Shown here: positions 5,786 through 40,382 of the stretch, in pieces | Layout: each line of letters starts with the position of its first letter | Position numbering within the stretch: the first letter of the stretch is position 1 | Sequence record: MK562502 | DNA length: 64,000 bases | Origin: Shigella phage KPS64 | Strand: one strand, 5' to 3' | The notes under the pieces: generated by a model | The model's input: only the letters and a program-made list of their open reading frames with translations | Told to the model about the DNA's origin: nothing | Database searches by the model: none | Translations under genes and position numbers: made by a program

Positions 5786-5819
5786 CAAATATATACAAAA
5801 TTTTATATAGGAGATAGTT

Positions 5820-6200
5820 ATGAAAAAGTTACTTGTTGGTGTCCTTGCTATTGGTATGAGTTTTAGTGCAGCAGCTATGAAGATGCCTGAAGCAAACTTT
5901 AATGGTGTCGCTTTAGAATCTTGTAAGATTGTACAGAAAATCGCTTCAAATGCTGGAGAGTTGACTAAACCGTTGTCTGCTCAGACTGTTCAAGAAATGA
6001 CTGATAAGATGGTTGACTACAACTACCATTTTATGGGAGATTACTATGACAGATTAGCAGATGAGATGGTTACTCAGAACGTTGACCTTCTTGATAGTAA
6101 AGGTATCGAAACTGTAGAAGATGTGAAAGATAATTTTATGCGTGAGTCTTTCAAAGGTGTTCAATACTTTATTGAAAATCGTCACTGCACGGGTTTATAA
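5820..6200 (+). CDS. putative secreted protein (126 aa)
   Basis: N-terminal signal-peptide-like MKKLLVGVLAIGMSFSAAA. Confidence 0.45.
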   Translation: MKKLLVGVLAIGMSFSAAAMKMPEANFNGVALESCKIVQKIASNAGELTKPLSAQTVQEMTDKMVDYNYHFMGDYYDRLADEMVTQNVDLLDSKGIETVEDVKDNFMRESFKGVQYFIENRHCTGL

Positions 6201-7059: not shown

Positions 7060-7547
7060 AACTCGATTTATACTTTGGGTACAGTGTATTGCAAGGCAGC
7101 ATACTGTCACTACCAAAGTCAGATTATCGTTGTGATTTAGGTTCTGTGAAACGTGCATCACACTTTAACAACAACATCTTAGGCTTGCAGACACTTCACA
7201 GGTGGCTTGAGGAAGATGGACGGTTGAATGAATATCTTCACCAACTAGAACTAGCCAAAGAAGAAGGGCATATGGGTTGGAATTTACTACCCCATCTGTA
7301 CAAACCTGCAAGTCCTATGGAGATACGCTATAACGAACAAGCAATTGATAGCTATAACAAATATAATATAACTATTGGCTCAAGACCTTGGAAGGAGTAT
7401 GGAAAGCTCCGTGAAATCATTATACAGACCATTGGAAAGCGTGTAGCAAAAGGTATTGCTTATGATGAAAAGGTTGACTGGAATACACAAAAGTGTATAA
7501 AATTCTTCAAGTACGATAATGACAAAGATACTTTTGTAGAGGTTTAA
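7044..7547 (+). CDS. hypothetical protein (167 aa)
   Basis: ORF, no motif. Confidence 0.4.
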   Translation: MSLPLKLDLYFGYSVLQGSILSLPKSDYRCDLGSVKRASHFNNNILGLQTLHRWLEEDGRLNEYLHQLELAKEEGHMGWNLLPHLYKPASPMEIRYNEQAIDSYNKYNITIGSRPWKEYGKLREIIIQTIGKRVAKGIAYDEKVDWNTQKCIKFFKYDNDKDTFVEV

Positions 7548-7548
7548 C

Positions 7549-8064
7549 ATGAAAATTGGAATTACCCTTTGCCAGCCTGAAGCAGAGTTCTTGAAATCAA
7601 TGTTGTCTGAGCATATGAAGTCCACAAATCATACTGAGAAGACATTCTTGATTGACACTAACTATGATGCAGGAACTATTGAGTTCATTGATGAAGACAC
7701 TGCTGACTCTCTGTGTGTTCTTCCTGCTCACTTATTTACTCCAGAGCTACGGGATAGTCGTTCTATTGAAGTTAATCTGGAGCCAAGTATCGAACTGTAC
7801 TCAGATACACAGTATCCAAGAAGCTTTAAAGCATTGCTAAACATCTTTATAGCTGATATTGTAGAGATTGTTAAGCAGACTGAAGGTGGTCATGTAGTAA
7901 CTGCTGAGTGTGAACAAGGCACTATCAAACTGACAGGTGACTTTGGTTCTATGAGTTTCTTAGACTTTGTTCCAAAACACTTTGAAGATTTCCTGTCAAG
8001 TGAAGTTGATGACCTTGATTTCATACTAAAATTTGAACGCACTTTTAAGGTAAACAAAAAATGA
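7549..8064 (+). CDS. hypothetical protein (171 aa)
   Basis: ORF, no motif. Confidence 0.4.
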   Translation: MKIGITLCQPEAEFLKSMLSEHMKSTNHTEKTFLIDTNYDAGTIEFIDEDTADSLCVLPAHLFTPELRDSRSIEVNLEPSIELYSDTQYPRSFKALLNIFIADIVEIVKQTEGGHVVTAECEQGTIKLTGDFGSMSFLDFVPKHFEDFLSSEVDDLDFILKFERTFKVNKK

Positions 8065-17114: not shown

Positions 17115-19875
<2,761 letters not shown>

Positions 19876-33808: not shown

Positions 33809-33884
33809 TTGGAGTATCGGAAGGGACTCGAACCCTCATAAGCCTGTTTTGCAGACAGGAACATAACCATTTCTGACACCGACA
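33809..33884 (-). tRNA. tRNA-Cys (anticodon GCA)
   Basis: T-arm aaggg-ACTCGAA-ccctc, 7-bp acceptor, anticodon loop CTGCAAA, encoded CCA. Confidence 0.7.
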
Positions 33885-33890
33885 CATAAT

Positions 33891-33983
33891 TTGGAGGAAG
33901 ATACCAGACTTGAACTGGTACGCCGATTTCTCGGTTACTGGCAGTTTAGCAAACTGCTCCCTTACCTTTTAGGGTTAATCTTC
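33891..33983 (-). tRNA. tRNA-Ser (anticodon GCT), long variable arm
   Basis: Perfect acceptor ggaagat/atcttcc, T-arm accag/ctggt, anticodon loop TTGCTAA. Confidence 0.7.
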
Positions 33984-33985
33984 CA

Positions 33986-34783
33986 TTATTTGTTCAGAGC
34001 TTCTTTCATCTCTGGAGTTGCGATAGTATCAATCACACCAGTTTTACATGAATCATCAAACCAGCTTGGTAGAACATTCGCAAGGAAACCATTAATATTT
34101 GTTTTCAGGTATTCTGCAATCAGTGCTGCTTCATCTGCAATCATCTGAGTTACTTCATTAGCATATGCAGTAATCTTTGCAATACCATCATTAATCGCTG
34201 TAACGGCCTGTGTAGCGAGTTCAGAGATTGTATCTAGTCCTTGGTCGATTGCATCTTGCAAATCGCTTAGAACGCTATTTACAGCGTCTATGGAGGTATT
34301 AATCAAATCCATCGCTTTGTTACCGTACTCGGTAGCTACGCCCATGATACCACTAAACGGTGTACATCCAACCTGTTCACCTGCTGCTCCCATAACGTTA
34401 GAGTAACCTTTAGCTACTTGCATACGTTGTGAAAACTCATCTACAGACTTTTGTCCATACTCAGTAAGTGTACTTGTCGTTGAAGTTGTACTTCCAAGGC
34501 TTGTTGTGAAGCTTCCTAATAAGGCTGTTGTCAGTCCAGCAGCAACTAAAATCTGTTGTGTAGCTGGGTCTGTTACAGAACTAATCGAGTTAACTAATGA
34601 TTGAGAGGCAGCTACAGTACCACCAAGAACTGCTGCACCAGTAATAAGAGGGTTTGAGAAACCATTACCAGTTTTAAGGAGATTAAAAATCTCTTTACTT
34701 TGTTCTGTCATCTCTTTCATTATGCACCTATAAAGTTGGTAGCCCATCGGGATTTGAACCCTGTTCTCATGTTTTTCAGACAC
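33986..34783 (-). CDS. hypothetical A/T/S-rich protein (265 aa) embedded in the tRNA array
   Basis: ORF flanked on both sides by tRNA genes. Confidence 0.45.
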   Translation of the reverse strand: MSEKHENRVQIPMGYQLYRCIMKEMTEQSKEIFNLLKTGNGFSNPLITGAAVLGGTVAASQSLVNSISSVTDPATQQILVAAGLTTALLGSFTTSLGSTTSTTSTLTEYGQKSVDEFSQRMQVAKGYSNVMGAAGEQVGCTPFSGIMGVATEYGNKAMDLINTSIDAVNSVLSDLQDAIDQGLDTISELATQAVTAINDGIAKITAYANEVTQMIADEAALIAEYLKTNINGFLANVLPSWFDDSCKTGVIDTIATPEMKEALNK

Positions 34784-34813
34784 GCGCTTTAACCATATAA
34801 GCTAATTGAGCTA
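34737..34813 (-). tRNA. tRNA-like gene, probable tRNA-Phe (anticodon GAA), weak T-stem
   Basis: Anticodon arm cgtgt-CTGAAAA-acatg and CCA end are clean, but the T-stem has only 3 GC pairs and the D-arm is irregular. Confidence 0.4.
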
Positions 34814-34819
34814 TTAAAT

Positions 34820-34895
34820 TGGGGTGACCTACGGGAATCGAACCCGTATAGACCATGTTCACAGCATGGGTCATTATCCATTTATGATAAGGCCA
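34820..34895 (-). tRNA. tRNA-His (anticodon GTG)
   Basis: Acceptor, D-stem tcat/atga, anticodon stem ccatg/catgg, loop CTGTGAA, T-arm acggg/cccgt. Confidence 0.7.
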
Positions 34896-34927
34896 CATTT
34901 AAGGACTCTCGTAAGAACCCTTAGAAG

Positions 34928-35003
34928 TGGCAGCAGTATAAGGATTTGAACCTTAATCTTTCAGCTTCAGAGGCTGGAGCATTGCCAGTTATGCTATACT
35001 GCT
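34928..35003 (-). tRNA. tRNA-Gln (anticodon CTG)
   Basis: Perfect acceptor, D-stem gcat/atgc, loop CTCTGAA. Confidence 0.6.
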
Positions 35004-35009
35004 AATATT

Positions 35010-35088
35010 TGGTACTCCATATCGGATTCGAACCGATACATAACACAGATTTTAAATCTGGCCTCTCTGCCAATTGGAGTAATGGAGC
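35010..35088 (-). tRNA. tRNA, anticodon reads TAA (Leu?) but short variable arm
   Basis: Clean T-arm atcgg-ATTCGAA-ccgat and acceptor; anticodon register uncertain. Confidence 0.45.
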
Positions 35089-35090
35089 AT

Positions 35091-35166
35091 TGGCGGGGGA
35101 TGATGGAGTTGAACCATCTTCTTCGATTTCAAAGACCGAGGTTTTAACCGTGTAAACTAATCCCCT
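35091..35166 (-). tRNA. tRNA-Gln (anticodon TTG)
   Basis: T-arm gatgg/ccatc, D-stem gttt/aaac, loop CTTTGAA. Confidence 0.6.
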
Positions 35167-35392
35167 AACGAACTCTTGAAAGAATATATGCGTTATTACA
35201 TGTATCCTTGTTTTCTGGTAACATTGTTTCAAAGATAACTTGCTTTAGTTCTAATCCAGCAAAATTGTAGACAACTTTTCTGACTTCTAGAGGGTCAGCT
35301 TTCCAACCAACTCTGATAAAGAAAGTATCTCCAAATCTCCCTGTTTCAAGTTTGTCATCTTCTGGGTGTTTTTCAACTATAAGTCTAAACAT
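35165..35392 (-). CDS. hypothetical small protein (75 aa) within tRNA array
   Basis: ORF between tRNA genes. Confidence 0.35.
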   Translation of the reverse strand: MFRLIVEKHPEDDKLETGRFGDTFFIRVGWKADPLEVRKVVYNFAGLELKQVIFETMLPENKDTCNNAYILSRVR

Positions 35393-35410
35393 AACTCACC
35401 CCTTTAAATT

Positions 35411-35487
35411 TGGTGCAGAATAGAGGATTCGAACCCCTAACTAACAACTTCGTAGGTTGCTGCTCTGTCCATTTGAACTAATTCTGC
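35411..35487 (-). tRNA. tRNA-Arg (anticodon ACG)
   Basis: Perfect acceptor gcagaat/attctgc, loop CTACGAA. Confidence 0.65.
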
Positions 35488-35649
35488 AATATCCTTTTGA
35501 GATTCCTGTCTAGCTCTCTTCTTATCTCTTCTGAGAAAGCGTTTACGATGGTCTGTACGCCATTTGTAATAATCTTCTTCACCATCATGTGCTGCACAGC
35601 AGCCACAACTTGCAATTTCAACTTTACCATGTCTACCATAAGGCTTCAT
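35437..35649 (-). CDS. hypothetical basic Cys-rich small protein (70 aa)
   Basis: ORF whose 3' end overlaps tRNA-Arg; real start/stop uncertain. Confidence 0.25.
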   Translation of the reverse strand: MKPYGRHGKVEIASCGCCAAHDGEEDYYKWRTDHRKRFLRRDKKRARQESQKDIAELVQMDRAATYEVVS

Positions 35650-35665
35650 AGGAATCTCCTAAAAT

Positions 35666-35743
35666 TGGTGTTCCAAGACGGATTCGAACCGTCACTAATA
35701 CAAGGTTTGAGCTTGCATCCTCTGCCAATTGGGATACTGGAAC
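35666..35743 (-). tRNA. tRNA, anticodon reads CAA (Leu?) but short variable arm
   Basis: T-arm gacgg/ccgtc and acceptor clean; D-arm paralogous to the tRNA at 35010. Confidence 0.45.
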
Positions 35744-35744
35744 T

Positions 35745-35819
35745 TGGTACTCGCTGAAGGACTTGAACCTTCTTCACCAACTTGTAAGGATGGGGCTTTA
35801 CCATATAAACTAAGCGAGC
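35745..35819 (-). tRNA. tRNA-Val (anticodon TAC)
   Basis: T-arm gaagg/ccttc, loop CTTACAA. Confidence 0.6.
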
Positions 35820-35914
35820 TTTGAAGAGGTCTGAAGCTGTGCCGCTAACTCAACTCCGTGGAATTTGTTACGGTCTTCAGTTGACTCAAGCGGTCTTTCA
35901 CTTGACCTCAAAAT

Positions 35915-35991
35915 TGGTGCTGCTCACAGGACTCGAACCTGCATCTCCATCCTTACAAGGGATGTGCAATAGCCAATTATACGAAAGCAGC
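35915..35991 (-). tRNA. tRNA-Thr (anticodon TGT)
   Basis: Anticodon stem catcc/ggatg, loop CTTGTAA. Confidence 0.6.
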
Positions 35992-35997
35992 ATTATT

Positions 35998-36072
35998 TGG
36001 AGCATCCAGAGGGAATCGAACCCTCAACCTCAGTTTGGAAGACTGTAATTTTCCCATTTAAACTATGGATGC
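35998..36072 (-). tRNA. tRNA-Gly (anticodon TCC)
   Basis: Perfect acceptor gcatcca/tggatgc, loop CTTCCAA. Confidence 0.65.
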
Positions 36073-36078
36073 ACTAAT

Positions 36079-36154
36079 TGGTGGAGAAGCAGGGAATTGA
36101 ACCCTGTACTTAAGTTTGCAAAACTTACGTTTTAACCATGTAAACTACATCCCC
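36079..36154 (-). tRNA. tRNA-Ala (anticodon TGC)
   Basis: D-stem gttt/aaac, anticodon stem taagt/actta, loop TTTGCAA. Confidence 0.65.
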
Positions 36155-36160
36155 ATTGTT

Positions 36161-36236
36161 TGGTACAGGTGGAGGGAATTGAACCCATCGTCTTACTGAT
36201 TAAGAGTCAGCCGCATAACCATTTTGCTACACCTGC
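36161..36236 (-). tRNA. tRNA-Lys (anticodon CTT), weak T-stem
   Basis: Loop CTCTTAA; T-arm gggTTCAATTccc with 3 GC pairs, paralogous to the tRNA at 37640. Confidence 0.5.
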
Positions 36237-36243
36237 ATTAATT

Positions 36244-36321
36244 TGGTAGGAGACAAGGGATTCGAACCCTCAAACACCAACTTCTAAGGATGGTAGGTTT
36301 ACCAATTACCGTCAATCTCCC
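36244..36321 (-). tRNA. tRNA, anticodon reads TAG (Leu?) but short variable arm
   Basis: T-arm and CCA end clear; anticodon register uncertain. Confidence 0.4.
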
Positions 36322-36576
36322 ATTAAATCTTTGTAGAGAACTGCTAAGACGCCAAAGCAACAATGGTATCAAATGCCTTAACAATTCTCTAAAAAGACCT
36401 ATTGGCCTCTGCATAGTCTTGCTTAATCCGGTGACTAGAACCTTTGGAGAGCTTGATACTATCTCTTCTCCGTGACACCTACTAGGTGCTTTACCAGTGC
36501 CGTGTACGCCAATACACGAAGAGGAAACCTGAAACACTTGCTCGAACAAATAGTCTCAGCTTTAAATCTTATTAGG

Positions 36577-36664
36577 CGGTAGATAAAGGAGTCGAACCCT
36601 CACCGTATCTCTACAATGGCAATAGTTTTCAAGACTATTTGGCTTCCATTAGCCGCTACCTACC
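36577..36664 (-). tRNA. tRNA-Ser (anticodon TGA), long variable arm
   Basis: Acceptor ggtaggt/atctacc, anticodon stem atagt/actat, loop CTTGAAA, about 20-nt variable arm. Confidence 0.6.
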
Positions 36665-36677
36665 CCTAATAAGACTT

Positions 36678-36760
36678 TGGCATGGGACGGAGGATTCGAA
36701 CCCCTTTGAGTAAGTTTTGGAGGCTTACGCACATGCCTTAGTGTCTTAACATCGTCCCAT
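36678..36760 (-). tRNA. tRNA, possibly Trp (anticodon CCA); about 4 nt longer than standard
   Basis: Perfect acceptor atgggac/gtcccat; loop CTCCAAA candidate; extra length unexplained. Confidence 0.45.
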
Positions 36761-36925
36761 ACTATATTTCGAAGCTTACCCTGTTATCTCAACACTGTCA
36801 AGCTTCTTCTCAGATTATTTACATGTTCTGGAAAACATGAGATACAGACCACCTCCTTATGAGATTGACTCTTTCAAGTCAATGCGGAGACCCATAAAGG
36901 TCGTCATAGTAATCTGCTAACTAAT

Positions 36926-37045
36926 TGGCAGTCAAGGTAGGAGTCGAACCTACTTACTCTTGAGGGAGCTACCCTCGGCAACTTTCCGACTTTCGTTTAT
37001 CTCTTAACGCGTATCTAAGATAACTTACTCGTGTTGTCTTGACCA
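36926..37045 (-). ncRNA. 120-nt tRNA-like RNA (117 nt without CCA): terminal stem plus canonical T-arm, extra internal hairpins
   Basis: CCA end, T-arm gtagg-AGTCGAA-cctac and 7-bp terminal stem agtcaag/cttgacc are present, but about 40 nt too long for a tRNA. Confidence 0.4.
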
Positions 37046-37052
37046 TTAAAAT

Positions 37053-37128
37053 TGGCACTCCGTATAGGACTCGAACCTATATATGAACTGTTTAGAAGAC
37101 AGTTGCCTATCCTTTAGACTAACGGAGC
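37053..37128 (-). tRNA. tRNA-Arg (anticodon TCT)
   Basis: Anticodon stem actgt/acagt, loop CTTCTAA. Confidence 0.65.
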
Positions 37129-37404
37129 ATTAATATTTTAAAGAGCACTCATTGCATTTAAGCCAAGCCCCTTAAGGGATGCTCTTTAGAATATTGCCCA
37201 CTTTATTAATCATACCGTGGGCTAGTACGCCAAATTCTTTAACAGGGGGTTGGAAGACCCTGCTGGTGTTTAGCCTATTAAGCTACTGCCAGAAAAACAT
37301 TATCGTTTGCATTTATTTTTAAGTTTTTAAAATAGACGCTACGCTAACGAAAACTAAGGTTATCTTAAAGTGGTCACATCTGAATGTCAACAACTTTATG
37401 AAAT

Positions 37405-37479
37405 TGGTTGTAGGTGAGGGTATCGAACCCTCTTCTAACGGTTATCAGCCGTTTGCATTACCATTTATGCTAACCCACA
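37405..37479 (-). tRNA. tRNA-Ile (anticodon GAT)
   Basis: D-stem gcat/atgc, anticodon stem aacgg/ccgtt, loop CTGATAA. Confidence 0.7.
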
Positions 37480-37481
37480 AT

Positions 37482-37558
37482 TGGAGGTTCAGATGGGAAT
37501 CGAACCCACATTCATAGGGCTTATGAAACCCTTGCATTACCTTATCTGCGACTGAACC
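37482..37558 (-). tRNA. tRNA-Met (anticodon CAT)
   Basis: Perfect acceptor ggttcag/ctgaacc, loop TTCATAA. Confidence 0.6.
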
Positions 37559-37639
37559 ATTATAAGTTGCCCCTTTGTAGAGAACTGATTGAGTGGGTGT
37601 TTCCAGCCGCGCATGTGTTCTTCAGTTAAGGGGCGAATT

Positions 37640-37715
37640 TGGTAGAAGTGGAGGGATTCGAACCCGTCGCCTGTCAGATTAAAAGTCTGCCGCATCACCA
37701 TTCTGCTACACTTCC
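37640..37715 (-). tRNA. tRNA-Lys (anticodon TTT), weak T-stem
   Basis: Loop CTTTTAA; T-arm gggTTCGAATccc. Confidence 0.5.
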
Positions 37716-37909
37716 ATTAAATCATCTTTGCAGTAACCTACGCAAACCTTGCTAAAGGGTTTGTAGAGTCATCTCTTATAAGCTAATCTAGAATCATGCT
37801 CAAGAGACTCTTCGGCACTCATGGGACGACTGGTTAGCTCCATAAGTCACTGCAAAGAGGATTACCAGACCGTATTTATCTTAAGTGCTCCCATTACACC
37901 AACACGCCG

Positions 37910-37990
37910 TAACGTGTGAAGGAATCGAACCTTCGCCTTTTCTTTACCAGAGAAATAGATTGTTTATTGTTTGCTGTAAACGGTCTTCTG
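37910..37990 (-). pseudogene. tRNA-like remnant: T-arm and anticodon-arm (loop CTGGTAA, anticodon GGT) without a pairing acceptor stem
   Basis: T-arm gaagg-AATCGAA-ccttc and stem tttct/agaaa found; no 5' acceptor partner. Confidence 0.3.
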
Positions 37991-38139
37991 TAAAATTGTT
38001 GGAACCAGACCAAGTTTTAAATTTTTCAAATTAAATTGGCTTGAAATATTAAAATTGCTTGCTGTATTTGGTCTTCTGCTCCTTTAAAGAATACTCGTAA
38101 GAACTCTTTAAGGGAGGGGCTAAAAAGCCCTCTCAAATT

Positions 38140-38216
38140 TGGCGGTTACGAAGGGATTCGAACCCTCATCATCCTCCGTGACAGGGAGGTATTTTGACCA
38201 GTTAAACTACATAACC
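38140..38216 (-). tRNA. tRNA-Asp (anticodon GTC)
   Basis: Anticodon stem cctcc/ggagg, loop CTGTCAC. Confidence 0.65.
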
Positions 38217-38222
38217 TTTATT

Positions 38223-38307
38223 TGGTGCGCCCATCTGGACTCGAACCAGAAACCTCGAAAGGGACAGTTTTACAGACTGCTGCATTGACCATCTCTGCCA
38301 TGAACGC
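38223..38307 (-). tRNA. tRNA-Tyr (anticodon GTA), long variable arm
   Basis: 85 nt; loop CTGTAAA; variable hairpin. Confidence 0.6.
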
Positions 38308-38316
38308 ATTTAAAAT

Positions 38317-38393
38317 TGGCGGTTAGTCAGGGATTCGAACCCTGTACCATTCGGTTAACAGCCGACCGCACATGCCTTATGTGCTTCCTAACC
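38317..38393 (-). tRNA. tRNA-Asn (anticodon GTT)
   Basis: T-arm caggg/ccctg, loop CTGTTAA. Confidence 0.6.
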
Positions 38394-38476
38394 ATATTAG
38401 TATTACCAGACCGTATCTTTTCATTTTTTCCTATAAAAAATTTTAAGTGTTTGCTGTAAACGGTCTTCTGTAAATT

Positions 38477-38553
38477 TGGAGGCGGGTGTAGGAGTCGAAC
38501 CTACCGATAACATGCTAATGAGACATGTGAGACACCCTTTCTCTATACCCGCA
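38477..38553 (-). tRNA. tRNA with anticodon CAT (Met, fMet or lysidine-Ile)
   Basis: D-stem gaga/tctc, anticodon stem catgt/gcatg, loop CTCATTA. Confidence 0.55.
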
Positions 38554-38640
38554 ATTCTTAATGACCAGACCAAATCTTTTTTGGATTTCTATGCGCGAAA
38601 TTGAAAAGTTTGTTTGCTGTAATTGGTCTTCTGTCAAAAC

Positions 38641-38718
38641 TGGCATTCCCGAAGGGACTTGAACCCTCAAACCACACCTTGAAAGGGTGTTGACTTTACC
38701 TAATTTGTCTACGGGAAT
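38641..38718 (-). tRNA. tRNA-Glu (anticodon TTC)
   Basis: Perfect acceptor attcccg/cgggaat, anticodon stem acacc/ggtgt, loop CTTTCAA. Confidence 0.65.
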
Positions 38719-38724
38719 ATAATT

Positions 38725-38801
38725 TGGTCTCCATTGAAGGACTTGAACCTTCGGCCTTACCGCCCCAAACGGAACGCTCTACCAAGCTGAGCTAAATGGA
38801 G
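38725..38801 (-). tRNA. tRNA-Pro (anticodon TGG)
   Basis: Perfect acceptor, D-stem gctc/gagc, loop TTTGGGG. Confidence 0.65.
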
Positions 38802-38966: not shown

Positions 38967-40382
38967 TTACCAATCGTAGCGTTCAACCATTACTGCTTTG
39001 AGCATTACGCTGATAGGGTCAAACTTCTCACCACCAAGCAAAGCTTTTAAAGTGGCTGGAGAGAAACCAGATACCATCGCTACACCGTTATCCTTTACAG
39101 ACACTTCGCAAGTACCGTTACGGTTTGCTAAGTACCAGAATACCAGTTGTGGCATCTCATATCCAGCTTTCTTGTACTTTTCTTGAATTGCTTCAAAGTT
39201 AGTACGACCATCTGCTCCATCAACCTGATTAAACTGCATATCAGAGAAGATGATAAGCTTACTAGGCATCTCTTTCTGAGTCAAGTTGTTTTTAACACCA
39301 ATCTCAAGGATTCTTGCAAAAGCAGCTTGTAGGTCAGTTGAACCATACTCTACATGACTCTTCACTTGACGTAAGCGAGTCTGCAAATCACCACTCAATG
39401 TGATGAAGTGAGGTCTGCTAGAGTAAACCATCAATTCATCTTTAAAGCAACCTGTGTTACGTTCTGAAACGTACAGGGCTAAAGATACACCAATGTCTAG
39501 CGCTGTAACAGAACCATGTCGCTCCCAAGTCATAGAGGAAGATACATCTGCCATGCACAGAATGTTTTCACCATCTTTCATCCAGTTTGGTAAAGCTTTC
39601 CACTGTTCATTTGCAACGGTTGCATTACCGTAACCAACTGACTTTGTAATGTCATAAGGGTAGACTGCACCAGCATTAATCTTTGTCTCACCTTTAGTCA
39701 GTGCTGCAACGTATGCTGCATAACGCTCACCATCTTTACGACTGAAGAGTTTTTGATAACGTGCAGCAGCCAGTGAAGGAAGCTTGCTGTAATCAATCTC
39801 TCCAAACTCGTTTGCTGAAATCTTTTGTTCAACAGTGTCGGACAGTGCTGACAGAAGAACTCGATACTGCTTCTCTGAAAGATTTGCAAACTTACAGAAA
39901 CGACGAACAAAACGCATATGTCGTGATTTTACTCGTGGTAACCACTTTGCTGCCAGAGCCGATGTTGCAGGGTCTAACAGTGCCGATTCTAAATGCTTGA
40001 AAGCATCTGTTTCATAACGTGTACCAACAAAGATTTTAAAGTCATCATAACGACCTAAATCAGAAATCTTGTCCATGATACGTAACACTTGGAACTCATC
40101 AAGAATCCCGTCAGAGATTGCTTTAGTAAGAGTATAACGGAACGCTTTACGCTCACCCATACCTTCTCGTGCATCTCGCATATGTAACAGGATTCGAACT
40201 GCTACATCAATATCTTCTCGCATTGCCTTGTAAAACAAGTTTGGAAGAACTTCTACATTTGTTCTGCTTGAACCAGCAGCTTTGTAGAAATCTACCAGTG
40301 CAGACATTGAAGAGGTGTGGTTAACAGCACCGTTTTCAGTTAAACCTGCATGTAAATGCGAGTGCTTAAATAATTCGCTCAT
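38967..40382 (-). CDS. vWA-domain protein with MIDAS motif; possibly TROVE/Ro60-like (471 aa)
   Basis: CMADVSSSMTW matches a DxSxS MIDAS motif at about residue 280; helical N-terminal half; adjacent to tRNA array. Confidence 0.45.
   Translation of the reverse strand: MSELFKHSHLHAGLTENGAVNHTSSMSALVDFYKAAGSSRTNVEVLPNLFYKAMREDIDVAVRILLHMRDAREGMGERKAFRYTLTKAISDGILDEFQVLRIMDKISDLGRYDDFKIFVGTRYETDAFKHLESALLDPATSALAAKWLPRVKSRHMRFVRRFCKFANLSEKQYRVLLSALSDTVEQKISANEFGEIDYSKLPSLAAARYQKLFSRKDGERYAAYVAALTKGETKINAGAVYPYDITKSVGYGNATVANEQWKALPNWMKDGENILCMADVSSSMTWERHGSVTALDIGVSLALYVSERNTGCFKDELMVYSSRPHFITLSGDLQTRLRQVKSHVEYGSTDLQAAFARILEIGVKNNLTQKEMPSKLIIFSDMQFNQVDGADGRTNFEAIQEKYKKAGYEMPQLVFWYLANRNGTCEVSVKDNGVAMVSGFSPATLKALLGGEKFDPISVMLKAVMVERYDW

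Follow-up and report, generated by a model that had tools for sequence, protein, structure and literature searches.

A window of 64,000 nucleotides (nt) from Shigella phage KPS64 (sequence record MK562502), the whole stretch of DNA analysed here, contains in its transfer RNA (tRNA) cluster a tRNA-like element that ends in CCA and lies near the gene of a vWA protein. The question raised by this locus is whether the element is a tRNA, a Y-RNA-like partner of the vWA protein, as proposed in an initial annotation made from the sequence alone, or an RNA of another kind. A gene with a conserved structure and a defined distribution was found, belonging neither to the tRNA model nor to the YrlA model. 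It is best explained as an accessory, tRNA-derived and non-decoding small RNA of the phage tRNA operon, which would act as a tRNA mimic. The probability assigned to this explanation is about 0.55.

The window phage is a Felix-O1-like phage (Ounavirinae, genus Mooglevirus), and the 801 bases around the element were 98.3% identical to Citrobacter phage BSwM KMM2. ARAGORN identified 26 tRNA genes in the window, all on the minus strand within 33810..38801 and together covering every amino acid except Trp. The element was located in a 388-nt gap between tRNA-Arg(UCU) (37128-37053) and tRNA-Ser(UGA) (36664-36575). It occupies the minus strand from 37044 to 36926, that is 119 nt with the encoded CCA and 116 nt without it. 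It follows tRNA-Arg(UCU) directly, 8 nt past the CCA, and the other spacers in the cluster measure 1-9 nt. An encoded CCA is present in 25 of the 26 cluster tRNAs and likewise in the element. Nearly all cluster tRNAs are preceded by a leader ending ..TTAAT or ..ATAAT. In the element this is AATTTTAAT followed by GGTCAAG (as RNA, AAUUUUAAU followed by GGUCAAG), and the 8-nt spacer and leader from the CCA of tRNA-Arg(UCU) to G1 (AAUUUUAA+U, 37045..37052, minus strand) has the ..UUAAU ending common to the cluster tRNAs. Because the element shares this leader ending, its mature 5' end is most likely the G at 37044, and the U at 37045 would belong to the leader. The length of 120 nt (117 nt without CCA) in the initial annotation was corrected accordingly by one nucleotide, and its CCA was borne out.

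Read from 5' to 3', the element RNA is GGUCAAG-ACAACACGA-GUAA-G-[UUAUCUUAGAUACGCGUUAAGAGAUAA]-ACGAAAGUCGGAAAG-UUGC-C-[GAGGG-UAGCU-CCCUC]-AAGAGUAA-[GUAGG-UUCGACU-CCUAC]-CUUGACU-G-CCA. The whole element (36926..37044; all parts named here are on the minus strand) scored 140 bits with R1, a covariance model built from it, and 148-153 bits were obtained in relatives. The acceptor stem GGUCAAG/CUUGACU has 7 base pairs (bp) with G1.U72; its 5' strand (37038..37044) pairs with 36930-36936, and 7/7 pairs are present in 8/8 sequences. A 9-nt single strand, ACAACAC(G/U)A (37029..37037), replaces tRNA positions 8-9 and has one variable position only. The place of the D arm is taken by a long arm of 51 nt (36978..37028), closed by GUAA (37028-37025) and UUGC (36981-36978). 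Within this arm are an inner hairpin, A' (UAUCU...AGAUA, 5 bp, 36998..37022), and a 17-mer, ACGAAAGUCGGAAAGUU (36980..36996), which holds CGAA and the D-loop-like AGUCGG, a typical D-loop sequence. Hairpin B, with a UAGCU pentaloop, stands in the place of the anticodon arm (36962..36976; stem of 5 bp, 6 bp in relatives), and an 8-nt linker, AAGAGUAA (36954..36961), was placed by sequence reading and alignment where a tRNA has its variable region. The T arm, GUAGG-UUCGACU-CCUAC (36937..36953), aligned to positions 47-63 of the Rfam tRNA model and was also picked up by a T-arm scan. Reading of the sequence further gave the acceptor 3' strand CUUGACU, the discriminator G and the encoded CCA (36926..36936). 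The CCA end, canonical T arm, 7-bp terminal stem and separate 5-bp hairpin of the initial annotation are all present on the minus strand, the hairpin as the covarying GAGGG-UAGCU-CCCUC. Compared with a tRNA, the extra sequence amounts to about 45 nt, consisting of a covarying hairpin and then the invariant 17-mer, and a D stem-loop is absent.

The proposed structure was tested on eight distinct sequences for the acceptor stem, the closing stem, hairpin A', hairpin B and the T arm. All 26 proposed pairs were standard in all eight sequences (100% of cells); six of them were variable and none was broken. Both bases were exchanged in two pairs, hairpin A' having C-G for U-A and hairpin B having G-C for A-U. 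The closing stem GUAA/UUGC (4 bp) was kept in 8/8 distinct sequences, with U.G changed to U-A in two. Hairpin A' was likewise kept in all eight, its stem UAUCU/AGAUA becoming CAUCU/AGAUG in relatives, and it shows a U-A to U.G change beside the compensatory one. In hairpin B the pair closing the UAGCU loop covaries (U-A/G-C), and the window copy, compared with its relatives, has lost a base from either strand of the stem. The 17-mer was identical in 9/9 aligned sequences and is invariant while its neighbours vary.

Two other pairings were tried and rejected. The minimum-free-energy pairing of the single sequence draws the long arm as a continuous bulged hairpin, of which 4/5 variable pairs break in relatives; the extra nucleotides of the initial annotation stand, and its long bulged hairpin was given up. 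RNAalifold paired AGUCGGA with the T loop, where both sides are invariant and Moogle breaks one pair, and the canonical T arm was retained.

The element was detected by BLASTN in 24 of 50,697 phage records, all of them Mooglevirus or Suspvirus, at 85-97% identity, and it is unannotated in each of the 24. A diverged copy of 118 nt is present in Yersinia phage vB_YenM_P778, also directly 3' of tRNA-Arg(UCU). It has in common with the element the 5' UGGUC, the GGGUAGCUCCC hairpin and the T arm, and global alignment of the two gave z = 3-5.6 (z = 0.8 for the central domain alone). Five compensatory pairs were seen in the P778 copy, three in the acceptor stem and two in hairpin B; the Ro-like protein of P778 is 51% identical to the window protein. 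Wider searches added nothing. An exact 17-mer scan of IMG/VR returned the same phages and chance matches only, candidates from two hairpin-B/T-arm patterns in IMG/VR proved, on screening with R1, to be tRNAs only, and a 14-mer scan of metagenome contigs gave chance matches only among the 120 matches listed. No match to the element was found in E. coli genomes, and Felixounavirus-type contigs were without it.

Presence of the element is optional, in the manner of a cassette. In Shigella phage Sf13, GTTAGTTAGCAG, which in the window lies 3' of the element, comes directly after the tRNA-Arg CCA, and in Sf16 an HNH homing endonuclease gene fills the slot of the element. The slot 3' of tRNA-Arg was also noted as a swap site in general, empty in Sf13 (L017 620-660), occupied by HNH in Sf16 (L018 622-969) and by the element in 24 phages. 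In an alternative reading the element would act as DNA, either as the -35 box of a downstream promoter or as a cassette tied to homing-endonuclease traffic. A promoter-like site with 9/12 matches, TTGACT-18 nt-TACTAT (36935-36906), starts in the acceptor 3' strand and lacks its -35 part in Sf13. Sf16 has its HNH gene in the same slot, and in T4 segB lies beside tRNA-Arg. Against this, 16 promoter-like sites were found and 15.1 were expected in shuffled sequence, and the compensatory changes in the RNA stems would be left unexplained. An action at the DNA level is therefore regarded as very improbable.

The element was tRNA-like without being recognized as a tRNA, as the initial annotation had described it. 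No call was made by ARAGORN at default settings or with introns allowed, and no Rfam family matched at gathering or permissive thresholds in searches of the window, the cluster or the element alone. In a 171-nt search the Rfam tRNA model (RF00005, gathering score 29 bits) saw the T arm only, at 11.6 bits, and was otherwise silent up to an E-value of 10. R1 also aligned ordinary tRNAs (22-32 bits), always in one register: acceptor stems and T arms matched each other, the closing stem fell on the D stem, and hairpin B fell on the anticodon arm. Because of this register the element appears to be a tRNA derivative, with a closed pentaloop, a 51-nt arm for the D arm and nine nucleotides for positions 8-9. 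It shares with canonical tRNAs (RF00005) a 7-bp acceptor stem, a discriminator base with a 3' CCA, a T arm of the GUUCRA type (here GUUCGA), the leader of the cluster and a four-way junction. It differs from them in having nine instead of two nucleotides after the acceptor, followed by the 51-nt arm and not by a D stem-loop, in its additional 45 nt or so, and in the lack of a 7-nt anticodon loop in which positions 32 and 38 are unpaired and 37 is a purine, the equivalent of position 37 being U. The loop is taken to be 5 nt since the pair closing UAGCU covaries, and the element cannot decode because an anticodon loop is lacking.

That the element is an odd decoding tRNA, whose 7-nt loop N-U-AGC-U-N would present the anticodon AGC (Ala), or else a tRNA of class II or with an intron, is hardly credible on these data. 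ARAGORN at a 70% threshold does read the 3' 77 nt of the element as tRNA-Ala(agc), U33 is present, and acceptor stem, T arm and CCA are all canonical. However, positions 32 and 38 covary as a Watson-Crick pair and position 37 is U, the D arm is absent, and both ARAGORN, at default or with introns, and the Rfam tRNA model beyond the T arm failed to recognize the element. The alanine identity pair G3.U70 is also absent, 3:70 being U-A or U.G, and tRNA-Ala(UGC) is already encoded by the phage.

We infer the expression, processing, L-shape and mode of action of the non-decoding tRNA mimic as follows. The element would be co-transcribed with the neighbouring tRNAs. RNase P would free it at G1 (37044), and 3' trimming would halt at the encoded GCCA, as for the flanking tRNAs. 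Making and trimming in the manner of a tRNA is suggested because leader, spacing, 7-bp acceptor and encoded CCA are those of a tRNA gene. The RNA could then form a four-way junction with an acceptor/T-arm minihelix, the UAGCU-pentaloop hairpin in place of the anticodon arm and the 51-nt arm in place of the D arm, in which the invariant AGUCGG may play the D-loop role against the T loop. Most likely, the element would be a stable tRNA mimic that binds, and thereby titrates or recruits, a factor recognizing the acceptor/T-arm/CCA end.

Small stable RNAs whose role is unknown were recognized in phage tRNA clusters fifty years ago, the examples being RNA C and RNA D of T4. Directly after T4 tRNA-Arg come the genes rnaD (119 nt) and rnaC, the latter of 139 nt and with a T arm; segB lies next to tRNA-Arg. 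RNA D and RNA C (species 2 and 1) resemble the element in size and in being encoded within a tRNA cluster, on the strand of the tRNAs and immediately 3' of tRNA-Arg(UCU). The T arm of rnaC is canonical as well, and a homing endonuclease gene adjoins the T4 pair as it does this slot in Sf16. By analogy, the element would belong to the same class as these T4 RNAs, whose roles are still unknown (PMC3014915, PMC12685909). The two phage families are unrelated, and the likeness is one of position and kind. The 7-mers GAGUAAG and GCGUUAA, common to the element and rnaC/rnaD, were suggestive of homology, but it was rejected at an alignment z < 2.

Several observations weigh against the tRNA-mimic explanation. 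The fold energy of the element is ordinary (z = -1.1), and since fold energy alone is ordinary, the case for more than chance rests on the comparison between relatives. U8 and the 15-48 Levitt pair are absent, and because these canonical tertiary partners are missing the L-shape is uncertain. Identity to the Suspvirus copies is 85-89%, compared with 86-91% for the flanking non-coding DNA. As identity is no higher in the element than in its flanks, purifying selection is visible in the pattern of changes and not in their rate. The P778 copy has no encoded CCA and has not kept the 17-mer. Finally, rnaC and rnaD of T4 gave no R1 match and an alignment z < 2 against the element, so that the parallel is positional only.

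Some of these points would also fit a decaying relic, that is a former tRNA gene broken by insertions, young and functionless between conserved flanks. Conservation not exceeding that of the flanking non-coding DNA, presence/absence polymorphism inside one genus, the absent anticodon loop and D arm, the missing CCA in P778 and the narrow distribution are all in line with decay. The manner of change is not. All six variable stem pairs still pair, two of them through double changes, and Moogle and P778, with no more than 51% identity between their Ro-like proteins, are separated by five compensatory pairs. Hairpin B was shortened by a base on either strand, the 17-mer has stayed constant between neighbours that vary, and leader and CCA are intact. 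A relic is accordingly considered unlikely.

The second question concerns the protein. The open reading frame (ORF) at 38967..40382 (minus strand, 471 amino acids) matched Pfam DUF2828 and DUF7788 and PHROG 850, 'RNA-binding protein'. It heads the tRNA cluster, and its stop codon lies 1.9 kb upstream of the element on the same strand, in agreement with the distance of about 2 kb first reported. The protein had 2474 matches among 8000 candidates scored, and the MIDAS motif DxSxS is invariant. An AlphaFold model was obtained with a mean predicted local distance difference test score (pLDDT) of 87.9 and a predicted template modelling score (pTM) of 0.88. The nine best fold matches in the PDB were full-length Ro60/TROVE proteins (E-values 1e-7 to 3e-6, template modelling score up to 0.59), and beyond these nine only isolated vWA domains were matched. 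The top match was 9KOP, phiRo60 of Thermus phage phiLo. PDB sequence searches with the 471-amino-acid protein gave nothing, Pfam TROVE was not matched, and the likeness to Ro60 comes from fold comparison only. On the model, the protein is predicted to be Ro60-like, with a TROVE ring and a vWA/MIDAS domain, and by its fold it bears out the possible TROVE architecture of the initial annotation, the Pfam TROVE family itself being unmatched. No functional paper on DUF2828 was found in the literature. phiRo60 binds two phage Y-like RNAs, selected by a CGAA motif, and also binds and attenuates the host polynucleotide phosphorylase (PNPase) (PMC12135203).

An association of this gene with tRNA clusters was observed repeatedly. 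In six loci of diverse lineages the Ro-like gene lies at or in a same-strand tRNA cluster, and tRNAs, nearly all on the same strand, lie no more than 8 kb from it in 38 of 80 further viral loci. T-arm motifs outside called tRNAs were on the strand of the Ro-like gene in 90/90 cases. DUF2828 proteins are not confined to phages and are also present in eukaryotes and giant viruses; mimivirus-like homologues were noted, and papers on plants mention DUF2828. As a separate observation, in many marine-type contigs (loci L172, L191, L193, L196, L198, L202, L216, L219, L223 and L225) a T arm followed by ..CUCCAC and preceded by AGAAU..AAGAC was noted several kb downstream of the Ro-like gene; these sites resemble the 3' end of transfer-messenger RNA (tmRNA). 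In a 148-kb phage contig (L145), two tRNAs called by ARAGORN lie just upstream of the Ro-like gene (5817-5891 and 7231-7305); the anticodon of one has 2 bases, and that of the other is CUA, which makes it an amber suppressor, labelled Pyl.

A second RNA recurs near the Ro-like genes. It consists of a terminal stem of at least 7 bp with ACAGCAA 1-4 nt past the 5' strand, a variable interior and a G after the 3' strand; the motif variants are NCAGCAA, NCCGCAA and ACUGCAA. A short form has 55-70 nt. In a long form of 100-130 nt a variable region is accompanied in the interior by T arm, closed acceptor-like hairpin and D arm, in the permuted tRNA-like arrangement by which YrlA is defined (PMC4201824). 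For 16 long forms RNAalifold predicted the terminal stem, T arm and acceptor-like hairpin, 18 of the 20 pairs showing compensatory changes. The long-form core of locus L168 scored 39.2 bits (E 1.7e-7) with the Rfam YrlA model, which is under its gathering score (RF02553, 69 bits). A module of stem and motif within 700 nt of the gene was found on the gene strand in 64/86 loci, compared with 12/86 on the opposite strand. Near the gene the bare 7-mer has a frequency of 0.74 per kb on the gene strand, compared with 0.05-0.11 per kb elsewhere.

Four such modules, each identified by its stem and ACAGCAA, are present on the minus strand of the window: the short modules A (38629-38567), B (38466-38408) and C (38074-38007) and the long module D (37986-37867), which has a YrlA-like permuted tRNA domain. 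A regular-expression scan of the cluster found modules A-D only, about 1 kb from the element. The family is also present in loci L021-L023, L144, L145, L146-L150 and L152-L225. Loci L146-L150, with a protein 84% identical, have four modules each and no element, and Felixounavirus-type loci without the element have the same four modules as the window.

No Rfam match at gathering score was obtained for the ACAGCAA family. Repeated sub-threshold matches to RF01414, the Dictyostelium Class I RNAs, this one family out of 4227, were seen for modules B (25.7 bits), A (21.3 bits) and D (17.5 bits), at 38407-38465, 38566-38628 and 37866-37985 on the minus strand, and for L168 (15.7 bits, 7720-7767). 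The Rfam consensus of RF01414, GaUcuC-CUUACAGCAAU...GagAuC-UG, agrees with the phage modules in layout and in motif. The length of Class I RNAs is 42-65 nt; they have a short terminal stem, an 11-nt motif beside the 5' strand and a variable remainder, and are reported to be unique to Dictyostelia (PMC7919456). By sequence likeness, the Dictyostelium Class I RNAs may be linked to DUF2828 Ro-like proteins. Such a link, if real, would point to a protein partner for the Class I RNAs and to their acting in the manner of Y RNAs.

As a Y-RNA-like partner of the Ro60-like protein, the role proposed in the initial annotation, the element was not supported: the YrlA model failed, the topology is that of a tRNA, and element and protein are not co-distributed. 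This was so even though the protein has TROVE similarity and no standard intron-containing or type II tRNA model fits the RNA, the reverse of which had been named beforehand as evidence against the partnership. YrlA (RF02553, PMC4201824) is like the element in its size of about 115-120 nt, its tRNA-like module with a T arm and its extra stem, and the CGAA of its motif occurs in the element too. YrlA itself is circularly permuted, ending at the anticodon-stem position with a closed acceptor-like hairpin between T and D arms (PMC4201824). It has a D arm and GNCGAAN0-1G near the 5' end, whereas the element has tRNA topology, with an open acceptor stem and CCA, and no D arm. The (A/U)ACGAAAG of the element is invariant in Moogle- and Suspviruses, but it is internal, lacks the first G in register and is absent from P778. 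In the 171-nt search, the Rfam YrlA model did not match the element at E-values up to 10. According to Chen et al. (2014), YrlA lies within 4 kb of the Ro60 gene on the same strand (PMC4201824), and the element does so at 1.9 kb.

The ACAGCAA RNAs share operon and strand with the element. They differ from it in sequence, in their near-invariant ACNGCAA and in their co-distribution with the protein. The element reads GGUCAAG-ACAACAC, without the invariant G and the final A, and after hairpin A' it reads ACGAAAG and not ACNGCAA. Rfam RF01414 had no match on the element, and local alignment with modules A-D showed no sequence similarity (z ~0). A visual likeness of the long arm to the 3' tails of modules B and D was pursued and dropped, local alignment again giving z ~0. 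Across 80 viral loci with the DUF2828 Ro60-like gene the element was found in none. Since the ACAGCAA RNAs co-occur with the Ro60-like gene and the element does not, modules A-D are probably the Ro partner RNAs rather than the element.

Some ACAGCAA RNAs in other phages are built like the element, in the order acceptor, hairpin, 7-nt motif, small hairpin, T arm, acceptor and GCCA. Long CCA-ended tRNA-like genes in which the anticodon arm is replaced by a stem with ACAGCA(A/U) were noted at L023 12568-12681 and L171 ~7585-7715, and from their sequence these are candidate tRNA-topology Y-like RNAs. L023 also has, at 17880-17982, a class-II-like tRNA of 103 nt that was not called by ARAGORN; its anticodon is UAU and its variable arm is long.

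These two genes, with the same part order as the element, are one reason to consider that the element could still be a Y-RNA-like ligand of the phage protein in tRNA topology, with an open, CCA-ended acceptor stem and with the hairpin and CGAA loop as the Ro-binding module. The protein has a predicted Ro60 fold whose best match, phiRo60 (9KOP), binds CGAA-motif Y-like RNAs and PNPase (PMC12135203). Its gene lies less than 2 kb away on the same strand, the size and tRNA-like module are those of Y RNAs, and CGAA falls in the invariant 17-mer directly 3' of a covarying hairpin. The weight of the other observations makes such a ligand doubtful. The Rfam YrlA model is silent up to E 10, the ACNGCAA motif of the protein-associated RNA family is absent, and the four modules of the window gave z ~0. 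The protein, with 2474 matches among 8000 scored candidates, has a much wider distribution than the element and is present without it in close relatives, and neither CGAA nor the 17-mer is kept in P778. Any 4-mer is expected about 0.5 times per 119 nt by chance, and the AGUCGG of the 17-mer is what a D loop typically contains. It is a speculative and rather unlikely extension that the element represents a second, tRNA-topology class of Y-like RNA, whose hairpin and CGAA loop would dock a Ro60-type ring and whose acceptor/T-arm/CCA end would interact with PNPase or with enzymes that handle tRNAs. The ring docked could be the phage DUF2828 protein or the host Rsr (Salmonella, Citrobacter; YrlA with GNCGAA). 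If this were true, a subset of phages would have an extra means of redirecting host RNA decay.

Other features of the tRNA cluster were observed. A second unannotated tRNA-like RNA of about 84 nt lies at 36676-36762 (minus strand), with the acceptor AUGGGAC/GUCCCAU, the T arm (A)GGGG-UUCGAAU-CCUC(C) and G + CCA. Its anticodon-like loop is oversized and its variable region long, and it was called neither by ARAGORN nor by Rfam. It is 86-100% conserved in most relatives and has a promoter-like TTGACA-17-TAAGCT upstream. The 276-nt gap between tRNA-Ile and tRNA-Arg (37129-37404, minus strand) is without a called gene. It contains a promoter-like TTGACA-17-TAAGAT at 37390-37362, several stable hairpins and sub-threshold Rfam tmRNA matches of 34.7 and 20.8 bits, and is 87-98% conserved in relatives. 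tRNA-Arg(UCU) (37053-37128) and tRNA-Ile(GAU) (37405-37479) showed 56-73% identity to the phages of loci L001-L008, with 86-99% in the flanks and 99% for tRNA-Met; entire tRNA genes appear to have been swapped for other alleles between phages. A 265-amino-acid ORF (33986-34783, minus strand; Pfam DUF7217, PHROG 2114) lies in the cluster between tRNA-Ser and tRNA-Phe, and the DUF7217 domain is also at the end of the tRNA cluster in loci L021 and L022.

The element, an unannotated RNA with a well-defined, covarying structure, would extend the T4 C/D kind to a phage group not related to T4, in which it holds the same position. The natural presence/absence variants Sf13 and Sf16 make its role testable by simple genetics. 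The wider finding concerns the DUF2828/DUF7788 protein: a protein widespread in phages has a predicted Ro60 fold, its gene is often at or in a tRNA cluster, and in most lineages an ACAGCAA RNA flanks it.

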